From IMG/VR virus record IMGVR_UViG_2657244961_000008, positions 1 to 43,067 of that record: DNA of 43,067 bases, one strand, 5' to 3'. The first letter of the stretch is position 1. Each line of letters starts with the position of its first letter. This DNA is from a virus (taxonomy: Duplodnaviria > Heunggongvirae > Uroviricota > Caudoviricetes). The translations under genes were made by a program, and so were the position numbers. The notes beneath the pieces are model-generated. The model did not search any database. It was not told the origin of the DNA and saw only the letters and a program-made list of their open reading frames with translations. Of this stretch, positions 24,893 to 26,745 are shown piece by piece.

Positions 24893-25405
24893 ATGAAACT
24901 ATTTATGGTTGATCGCCGAGGAATATACTCAACAGGCGATATCGTTACACCAAAGCAATTCTCCGATATAACTCCTGTTGAAATGTCATCTCTGGTAGAC
25001 AAACTTTTTCCGCGCGGGCTTGCTCCACAAGGCGAAGGATACCTCATTAATAATGCGGCAAAAATTTATAATAAAAACGAACTCATCGACTGGGGACTTG
25101 AGTTTTACCGAAGAGGAGTTTGCCCGCAAAAACCTTCTCGCTATACGTCACTCTTCGCCTGGGGTAACCTGGAGGAGGCTAAACATTTTCGACTTACAGA
25201 CGGAAAACCATCAGATAAAATTTTCATAATACAAACAGATAGTTATCATCGCGGAGATATGTCATTATTAAGAAATGATACATCGGTATTGGAATTCACC
25301 TACAGAATGGAGCTTTACTGGTCAGGAAAAACTTTTAACCCTGATCCAGTCTGGGAATACATTTGTCCGTTACCAGTAACTATCGGTGAACAAGTCCTTG
25401 CTTAA
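24893..25405 (+). CDS. AT-rich moron, hypothetical protein of unknown function
   Basis: About 170 aa from the ATG at 24893 (GGAG RBS 6 nt upstream); the track ORF starts at 24881. Antisense to the late operon and AT-rich by inspection. Its stop lies inside the left IS10 target duplication. Confidence 0.6.
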   Translation: MKLFMVDRRGIYSTGDIVTPKQFSDITPVEMSSLVDKLFPRGLAPQGEGYLINNAAKIYNKNELIDWGLEFYRRGVCPQKPSRYTSLFAWGNLEEAKHFRLTDGKPSDKIFIIQTDSYHRGDMSLLRNDTSVLEFTYRMELYWSGKTFNPDPVWEYICPLPVTIGEQVLA

Positions 25406-25407
25406 TC
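25399..25407. repeat. IS10 target-site duplication, left copy (TGCTTAATC)
   Basis: Identical 9-mer directly flanks both IS10 termini. Confidence 0.85.
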
Positions 25408-26736
25408 CTGAGAGATCCCCTCATAATTTCCCCAAAACGTAACCATGTGTGAATAGATTTTGAGTAAGCAGGGTTGCAGCCACGAGTGAGTCTTCCCTTG
25501 TTATTGTGTAGCCAGAATGCCGCAAAACTTCCATGCCTAAGCGAACTGTTGAGAGTACGTTTCGATTTCTGACTGTGTTAGCCTGGAAGTGCTTGTCCCA
25601 ACCTTGTTTCTGAGCATGAACGCCCGCAAGCCAACATGTTAGTTGAAGCATCAGGGCGATTAGCAGCATGATATCAAAACGCTCTGAGCTGCTCGTTCGG
25701 CTATGGCGTAGGCCTAGTCCGTAGGCAGGACTTTTCAAGTCTCGGAAGGTTTCTTCAATCTGCATTCGCTTCGAATAGATATTAACAAGTTGTTTGGGTG
25801 TTCGAATTTCAACAGGTAAGTTAGTTGCTAGAATCCATGGCTCCTTTGCCGACGCTGAGTAGATTTTAGGTGACGGGTGGTGACAATGAGTCCGTGTCGA
25901 GCGCTGATTTTTTCGGCCTTTAGAGCGAGATTTATACAATAGAATTTGGCATGAGATTGGATTGCTTTTAGTCAGCCTCTTATAGCCTAAAGTCTTTGAG
26001 TGACTAGATGACATATCATGTAAGTTGCTGATAGGTTTCCAGTTTTCCGCTCCTAGGTCTGCATATTGTACTTTTCCTCTTACTCGACTTAACCAGTACC
26101 AACCCAGCTTCTCAACGGATTTATACCATGGCACTTTAAAGCCAGCATCACTGACAATGAGCGGTGTGGTGTTACTCGGTAGAATGCTCGCAAGGTCGGC
26201 TAGAAATTGGTCATGAGCTTTCTTTGAACATTGCTCTGAAAGCGGGAACGCTTTCTCATAAAGAGTAACAGAACGACCGTGTAGTGCGACTGAAGCTCGC
26301 AATACCATAAGTCGTTTTTGCTCACGAATATCAGACCAGTCAACAAGTACAATGGGCATCGTATTGCCCGAACAGATAAAGCTAGCATGCCAACGGTATA
26401 CAGCGAGTCGCTCTTTGTGGAGGTGACGATTACCTAACAATCGGTCGATTCGTTTGATGTTATGTTTTGTTCTCGCTTTGGTTGGCAGGTTACGGCCAAG
26501 TTCGGTAAGAGTGAGAGTTTTACAGTCAAGTAATGCGTGGCAAGCCAACGTTAAGCTGTTGAGTCGTTTTAAGTGTAATTCGGGGCAGAATTGGTAAAGA
26601 GAGTCGTGTAAAATATCGAGTTCGCACATTTTGTTGTCTGATTATTGATTTTTGGCGAAACCATTTGATCATATGACAAGATGTGTATCTACCTTAACTT
26701 AATGATTTTGATAAAAATCATTAGGGGATTCATCAG
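25408..26736 (-). mobile_element. IS10 (IS4 family), complete 1329-bp copy
   Basis: Inside end CTGAGAGATCCCCTCATAATTTCCCC at 25408 and outside end CTGATGAATCCCCTAATGATTTT (reverse-complemented) ending at 26736. Length is 1329 bp with an intact transposase. Confidence 0.9.
25421..26629 (-). CDS. IS10 transposase
   Basis: 402 aa beginning MCELDILHDSLYQFCPELHLKR, which matches IS10/Tn10 transposase as recalled. Confidence 0.9.
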   Translation of the reverse strand: MCELDILHDSLYQFCPELHLKRLNSLTLACHALLDCKTLTLTELGRNLPTKARTKHNIKRIDRLLGNRHLHKERLAVYRWHASFICSGNTMPIVLVDWSDIREQKRLMVLRASVALHGRSVTLYEKAFPLSEQCSKKAHDQFLADLASILPSNTTPLIVSDAGFKVPWYKSVEKLGWYWLSRVRGKVQYADLGAENWKPISNLHDMSSSHSKTLGYKRLTKSNPISCQILLYKSRSKGRKNQRSTRTHCHHPSPKIYSASAKEPWILATNLPVEIRTPKQLVNIYSKRMQIEETFRDLKSPAYGLGLRHSRTSSSERFDIMLLIALMLQLTCWLAGVHAQKQGWDKHFQANTVRNRNVLSTVRLGMEVLRHSGYTITREDSLVAATLLTQNLFTHGYVLGKL

Positions 26737-26745
26737 TGCTTAATC
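26737..26745. repeat. IS10 target-site duplication, right copy (TGCTTAATC)
   Basis: Identical to 25399..25407. Confidence 0.85.

Follow-up and report, generated by a model that had tools for sequence, protein, structure and literature searches.

The two IS10 copies of transposon Tn10 on plasmid R100 (NC_002134.1; Left, 36132-37460, and Right, 43950-45278) are the reference elements for the insertion sequence (IS) described here; following the gene order of Tn10, we take the copy adjoining gltS to be IS10-Left and the copy adjoining tetC/tetD to be IS10-Right. The operon in which our IS lies is best compared with the late operon of phage lambda, where Q binds the spacer between the −35 and −10 of pR′; complexes formed by lambda-family Q proteins resist both intrinsic and Rho-dependent termination. 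We found an IS10 that separates the Q/pR′ unit of a prophage from its lysis and morphogenesis genes; the prophage is contained in a 43,067-nucleotide (nt) stretch of viral DNA (Caudoviricetes; IMG/VR record IMGVR_UViG_2657244961_000008, positions 1 to 43,067), which we call the window. The element, an IS10-Left-type copy, spans 25408-26736 on the − strand, with the inside end at its lowest coordinate and the outside end at its highest. Taken as a whole, it is best explained as a recent, strain-specific insertion into the late operon that breaks no gene and is probably tolerated, a reading in which we have high confidence; the identity of the element and the mechanism of its insertion, considered separately, are virtually certain.

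The element has the IS10 length, ends, 9-bp duplication, DDE transposase, RNA-OUT, and both Dam sites. The element is 1,329 bp long, as published for IS10 (PMC10294622). Re-reading the sequence placed the IS10 inside end, beginning CTGAGAGATCCCCTC, at the left terminus and the reverse complement of the outside end, CTGATGAATCCCCTAATG, at the right terminus; a script confirmed that the 1,329 bp open with CTGAGAGATCCCCTCATAATTTCCCC and close with the reverse complement of CTGATGAATCCCCTAATGATTTT, each of which occurs once in the window. The imperfect terminal inverted repeats, CTGATGAATCCCC at the outside end (26724-26736) and CTGAGAGATCCCC at the inside end (25408-25420), also have a single occurrence each and are the same as those of the R100 copies. 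From the outside end inward runs an uninterrupted open reading frame (ORF) for an intact 402-aa DDE transposase (25421-26629, − strand; ATG at IS nt 108), which matches DDE_Tnp_1 in Pfam (1.5e-24) and whose protein carries the PGAP (NCBI) label "IS4-like element ISVsa5 family transposase." The antisense RNA, RNA-OUT (26622-26691, + strand; IS10 nt 115-46), overlaps the transposase start and is transcribed opposite to the late direction; it matches Rfam RF00240 with 97.3 bits (gathering score 41) over model positions 1-70 of 70, its hairpin is stable in folding (−21.3 kcal/mol, z = −4.0), and its Rfam placement agrees with the published RNA-OUT end at nt 47 (PMC5006887). One Dam site, GATC, lies at 26667-26670 (IS10 nt 67-70) and the second at 25414-25417 (IS10 nt 1320-1323), in the inside end; PMC5006887 describes the role of these sites and an overlap of the former with the pIN −10. 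The initial annotation had called a 1,329-bp IS10 with canonical termini and an intact 402-aa transposase; these calls stand, with the type refined to IS10-Left by the gap-free, end-to-end alignments to the R100 copies given below.

The 1,329 bp are bracketed exactly by a perfect 9-bp repeat, TGCTTAATC, at 25399-25407 and 26737-26745, for which the probability of a chance 9-mer match is ~4e-6; a duplication of 9 bp is typical of IS10 (PMC4574204 and PMC10294622). The left copy holds the TAA stop (25403-25405) of a + strand gene, and the right copy holds the stop of a 100-aa ORF on the − strand (26742-26740, which reads TTA on the + strand at 26740-26742); no ORF is broken, since the stop codons of both convergent genes survive the insertion. 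By the mechanism usual for IS10, transposase made a staggered cut of 9 bp at TGCTTAATC, and repair then duplicated the 9-mer, with each gene retaining its stop. The empty site is seen directly in 10 Escherichia coli assemblies (our loci L001, L004 to L010, L012, and L013), all of which have a single TGCTTAATC with identical flanks (40 of 40 bases on each side in L001 and 25 of 25 in the stretches shown for the others), and this removes the leftover doubt about the duplication. The locus of E. coli C311 (L001) is 99.2% identical to the reconstructed empty site, and its two annotated convergent coding sequences share a 4-bp overlap, TTAA (locus positions 4738-4741). Thus, the initial annotation was right in its reading of a perfect direct repeat, of a landing at the TTAA stop overlap of two convergent genes with both stops left intact, and of an empty site to be found in related prophages.

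As a target, TGCTTAATC agrees with the strict IS10 consensus GCTNAGC (NGCTNAGCN) at four of six positions, with one half-site perfect (GCT) and the other matching at one of three, and with the relaxed consensus NPuCNNNGPyN at three of four positions. Both consensus forms are taken from PMC4574204 and PMC10294622, the former of which also documents off-consensus target sites. A third copy of TGCTTAATC, at 24815-24823 on the − strand and ~580 bp from the insertion, is unoccupied.

Relatives were found through contigs that encode the 100-aa ORF, which yielded ten distinct places, nine empty and one occupied. The occupied one, the only other instance of the insertion, is in draft assembly GCA_000826805.1 (L011, contig JRRG01000022.1), which is 100% identical to window positions 22740-31042 over 8,303 bp and is therefore either the source of the window or the same as that source; the window itself includes no flanking host DNA. 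The occupied site is absent from all 5,426 complete E. coli genomes, in which no record covers at least 80% of the query, and an exact search with a junction 33-mer found no match in GTDB species representatives or in JGI metagenomes. From these sequence comparisons, the insertion is real, rare, and probably recent. IS10 is documented to hop from laboratory E. coli into cloned DNA (PMC4574204; also Kovarik et al., as cited in PMC11148124), and the insertion might have been picked up during cloning or propagation in an IS10-bearing laboratory host, or created by an assembly error. We consider such an artefact scarcely credible: the identical occupied locus lies within a 496-kb whole-genome shotgun contig (that of L011), its junctions and duplication are perfect, and misassembly by repeat collapse does not give a clean 9-bp duplication. 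The event is an ordinary strain-specific insertion of a common IS, and both the element and the type of event are already known; it offers a clean, datable marker for one lineage and carries little weight beyond strain-level annotation.

Compared with IS10-Left of R100, the element is the same at 1,326 of 1,329 nt (99.77%, gap-free from end to end); the three differences (IS nt 203, 410, and 425) are synonymous, so the transposase is identical to that of IS10-Left (WP_001352368.1 on R100), and the ends, RNA-OUT region, and Dam sites are shared. Whereas IS10-Left of R100 is part of Tn10, the window element is a solo copy. IS10-Right of R100 is also of equal length and architecture, aligns without gaps, and has the same 23 terminal bp at both ends, but its identity is lower (98.95%): 14 nt differ, leading to four amino acid changes (I266V, S381L, T389A, and V398A, window to IS10-Right), and 6 of the 14 fall in the outside-end regulatory region (nt 24, 25, 27, 47, 83, and 107). 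At 13 of the 15 positions that distinguish the R100 copies, the window has the IS10-Left base; only nt 410 and 425 have the IS10-Right base. By these base assignments, the window element is an IS10-Left-type copy and not one of the IS10-Right reference type. Copies at least 99% identical to it occur on 1,485 plasmids, including one that is 100% identical (NZ_MK181558.1). The bases at IS nt 83 and 107 (window positions 26654 and 26630) are of the IS10-Left type and are part of the RNA-OUT loop and stem; with the Left-type base at nt 107, the RNA-OUT stem is still paired via G-U, and the sense-strand fold-back hairpin has an A-C mismatch. Antisense cross-talk with IS10-Right copies, as well as fold-back strength, may differ slightly between the two types.

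The late strand of the prophage is the − strand, on which the transposase also reads, and the IS sits 1.84 kb downstream of Q and 0.74 kb upstream of the pinholin gene. The initial annotation was thus correct in placing it after the Q/pR′ unit and ahead of the lysis and morphogenesis genes, co-oriented with late transcription. Q (28677-29498, − strand), which follows a RusA gene identified by domain search (29495-29869, − strand), encodes a 273-aa antiterminator of the lambda family (PF03589, 1.1e-52; PDB 7UBM, 1.1e-39, and 4MO1, 9e-27). Both PDB entries are titled only "Antitermination protein Q," and we take them to be phage lambda Q. Each matches our Q in two stretches (residues 1-113 with 1-113 and residues 182-273 with 79-170), and the ~70 extra Q residues between these stretches carry CxxCxGxG motifs and give a weak DnaJ_CXXCXGXG match, under the Pfam cut-off. 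By its sequence, the protein belongs to the lambda Q family and has gained a DnaJ-type zinc-finger segment; L009, L010, and L011 have this 273-aa form as well.

A candidate late promoter, pR′ (28632-28671, − strand), consists of TTGATT (28671-28666), 16 nt, and TGgTAAATT (−10 at 28649-28644); downstream of this −10 come a −10-like pause element, AACGAT (28637-28632), and then GGG. The lambda pR′ region (Q to orf-64) reads GGTAAATT, 6 nt, AACGATGGG, and the candidate aligns with it at the same spacing. A tR′-like intrinsic terminator (28570-28596, − strand; 8-bp GC-rich stem at 28596-28577, plus 7 T) lies ~80 nt past the Q stop. Among relatives, this candidate pR′/tR′ segment occurs only in those with the same Q, L009 and L010 (99%). 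The unit thus shares with lambda the Q family, the GGTAAATT-6 nt-AACGATGGG layout, and a terminator after the promoter, but differs in the ~70-aa Q insertion, in an unrelated −35/−10 spacer, and in a terminator much closer to the promoter. The window also differs from lambda in having ~4 kb of accessory genes, the IS now included, between the pR′ unit and the holin.

This accessory stretch contains, on the − strand, a 65-aa winged-helix-like ORF (28251-28448), a second terminator-like hairpin found in terminator and fold scans (28264-28247), a DNA methyltransferase gene (N6_N4_Mtase; 27048-28100), and the 100-aa ORF (26740-27042), which is the final ORF ahead of the IS and is untouched by the insertion; the 65-aa ORF and the methyltransferase were assigned by domain search. 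On the far side of the IS, and equally untouched, lies the convergent gene (24881-25405, + strand), an ORF of 174 aa (170 aa in relatives) belonging to PHROG 5663. It is followed on the − strand by a third terminator-like hairpin with a T-run (24701-24738; hairpin at 24738-24708), ~40 nt upstream of the pinholin start, and by the lysis cassette: a P21-type pinholin of 71 aa (24448-24663) and, by domain search, lysozyme (23951-24448) and Rz (23487-23966). HNH, terminase, head, and tail genes are annotated further downstream of Rz on the same strand. The terminase, portal, protease, capsid, tail, replication, cII, repressor, and exonuclease genes are all full length, and the prophage looks otherwise complete.

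For the two genes that flank the IS, neither Pfam (at E up to 10) nor PADLOC gave a match, and PHROG 5663 has no known function; a precomputed PF10386 (DUF2441) label for the 170-aa protein was not reproduced in our Pfam scan. These convergent, TTAA-sharing genes travel with the methylase gene across at least four Q types and several lysis cassettes (L001 and L004 to L013). The hairpin at 24701-24738 is 100% conserved in all relatives checked, even those with a different (lambda-type) holin, and is therefore part of the accessory-gene module and not of the lysis cassette. The hairpin at 28264-28247 is also conserved in relatives generally, unlike the pR′/tR′ segment.

From pR′, the lysis and virion genes are reached only through the IS. 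Since these genes are all downstream of a single late promoter, their expression after induction would need traversal of the IS, and dependence of late expression on Q-modified polymerase crossing it, as the initial annotation had proposed, is a reasonable expectation from the logic of lambdoid operons. The insertion adds 1,338 bp, and on the late strand the gap that separates the 100-aa ORF from the pinholin ATG widens from 738 to 2,076 nt. We picture a recent cut-and-paste transposition of an ordinary IS10-Left-type copy into the accessory ("moron") stretch of the late operon, with probably no effect on late expression or at most mild polarity. Even without the insertion, three terminator-like hairpins and a gene in antisense orientation would stand in the way of Q-modified polymerase, and passage through the IS would be expected as well; the hairpins at 28596-28577, 28264-28247, and 24738-24708 all lie on the late path in empty-site relatives. 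Terminator and fold scans found no strong intrinsic terminator inside the IS in the late direction. On balance, and by analogy with lambda, we lean somewhat toward the view that the insertion is tolerated because Q reads through it.

The opposite outcome, that IS10 acts as a disabling polar lesion and a step toward domestication, would leave the lysis and virion genes underexpressed even with Q, trapping the prophage while its upstream accessory genes remain functional; polarity would arise from Rho acting on the long untranslated stretch, or from hairpins at the junction and inside the IS. The widened gap is untranslated on the late strand and includes, in the 5′ portion of the transposase gene, windows rich in C and poor in G. 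At its upstream junction, the insertion has also created a new 7- to 8-bp hairpin, GGGGATT(11 nt)AATCCCC, behind which comes a U-rich tract. It also fits this outcome that IS10 is essentially absent from deposited phage genomes and that other IS10-bearing prophages show decay (a nested IS2 in L002 and a frameshifted Q in L003; see below). However, Q-loaded polymerase is established to resist intrinsic as well as Rho-dependent terminators, the empty-site phage already requires read-through of three hairpins and an antisense gene, the IS has no strong terminator of its own in the late direction, and the other genes of the prophage, all full length, give no sign of long-standing decay. In addition, CL707 (described below), which is recorded as a phage, has a co-oriented IS10 in an antiterminated operon. 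We therefore regard a disabling lesion as unlikely. As for the junction hairpin itself (26721-26747, late strand; ~−10.8 kcal/mol when folded within the entering late transcript), GGGGATT of the flank and duplication pairs with AATCCCC of the outside end and is followed by UAAUGAUUUUUAU; it is probably a coincidence, in that the flank (…AATCCCC) resembles IS10 nt 7-13.

Late transcription entering the IS need not activate the transposase, because the safeguards of IS10, intact here in sequence (a weak pIN with its Dam site, RNA-OUT, and a fold-back hairpin), would keep it from doing so. The entering transcript could form a long hairpin, the sense counterpart of RNA-OUT, that RNA-IN, which starts downstream of nt 62, could not form; when 150 nt of this transcript were folded, the centroid structure showed pairing between IS nt ~52-62 and the AUG region. 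This agrees with the "fold-back inhibition" reportedly described by Davis, Simons and Kleckner in 1985. If the transposase is not translated from read-through RNA, ~1.2 kb of that RNA is left naked, and its protection would then fall entirely to Q.

Several points weigh against a tolerated IS10-Left-type insertion. The fold-back pairing appears in the centroid and not in the minimum-free-energy structure, and the 150-nt fold is unexceptional (z = −1.5); windows with C exceeding G, at 26658-26451, could load Rho on the ~1.2 kb of untranslated RNA. IS10 is nearly absent from deposited phage genomes, with one instance in 50,697 records and that one partial; such scarcity would fit IS-bearing prophages that rarely yield phage, and the collection is biased to lytic phages. 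Tolerance of the IS is something that we infer from the lambda analogy. Finally, IS10-Left was reported as inactive or transposition defective in older work, as cited in PMC11148124, which makes the source of the transposase for this hop unclear. The clean 9-bp duplication shows that an IS10-Left-type copy did transpose at least once, and a hop of IS10L onto a plasmid is documented (PMC11481808); the window thus offers an instance in which a copy of the classically "defective" type has transposed in nature.

The inside end of the IS faces the DUF2441-labeled gene and then the holin, and IS10 nt 1000-1230 (window positions 25507-25737, − strand) are reported to contain the promoters pIII and OUTIIp, which have been argued to drive read-through into neighboring genes (PMC11481808). 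This segment is identical to that of IS10-Right in our alignment, and the IS might accordingly serve as a mobile promoter, with outward transcription giving low-level, Q-independent expression of pinholin and endolysin, or antisense RNA against the DUF2441-labeled convergent gene, in the uninduced lysogen. We find this highly improbable: the conserved hairpin and T-run at 24738-24701, ahead of the pinholin ATG, should stop unmodified polymerase; both promoters are described as weak; selection would be expected against constitutive holin expression; and the direction of pIII and OUTIIp is taken second-hand from PMC11481808, with their reading toward the inside end being our deduction. A broader proposal, that the Q-to-holin interval is a recurrent landing zone where IS10 is retained for re-tuning lysis and that this copy is regulatory rather than neutral, also seems very unlikely. 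If true, the IS could damp late read-through and so tame the prophage, or weak Q-independent transcription could run from its inside end toward the pinholin and antisense to the convergent gene.

Set against these alternatives, the tolerated insertion remains our preferred reading. The locus is a ready-made natural test of the ability of a lambda-family Q complex to bring RNA polymerase through 1.3 kb of DNA that is foreign and probably untranslated. The insertion also bears on prophage prediction: the IS landed at shared stops and the duplication restored both, leaving no gene broken, so this prophage need not be dead from the IS alone, and the presence of an IS is in itself no sign of a dead prophage.

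The only IS10 among the 50,697 deposited phage records is in phage CL707 (EF120459.1, L018; locus positions 3738-5055), a wild phage of lambda immunity known from a 5-kb partial sequence. Its IS10, which is closest to IS10-Right and 98.9% identical to the window IS, lies past N and one small ORF, co-oriented with the antiterminated pL operon. CL707 thus has its copy in the early-left, N-dependent operon, whereas the window copy is in the late, Q-dependent operon.

A literature search on IS10 in prophage late operons found nothing specific. Other E. coli prophages (L002, L003, L015, L016, L019, and L020) do have independent IS10 copies in their Q-to-lysis interval, a non-essential stretch of the late operon in which IS insertions are well known; their sites differ, and several break a gene or accompany decay, whereas the window copy breaks none. 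In L002 (NZ_OW968124.1; locus positions 4891-7435), an IS10/ISVsa5 split by IS2 occupies the gap between Q and the methylase gene in the same orientation as the late genes. L003 (NZ_CP050998.1; locus positions 4596-6320) has a co-oriented copy directly after a frameshifted Q; this copy is of the IS10-Left type and shares its transposase accession with IS10-Left of R100. In this prophage, what comes after the methylase gene is not a set of lysis genes but a gene for a RelE-family toxin next to a helix-turn-helix gene. The L019 copy is inserted between Q and the methylase gene, opposite to the late genes, and the L016 copy directly after Rz, in the same orientation as the late genes. We rejected a bias of IS10 toward co-orientation with late genes: our search had joined same-strand pieces only, and a mirror-image query returned the anti-oriented copies in L019 and L020.

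In L015 (NZ_CP173554.1) and L020 (NZ_CP029741.1), the porin moron that separates quuD from essD carries IS10, in the same orientation as the late genes in the former and opposite to them in the latter. The porin gene of DLP12-like prophages is thus split by IS10 both ways in different strains, including the laboratory strain BM28, which suggests that this moron has been hit repeatedly and independently by IS10. The classical counterpart comes from E. coli K-12, whose prophage DLP12 carries IS5 in nmpC.

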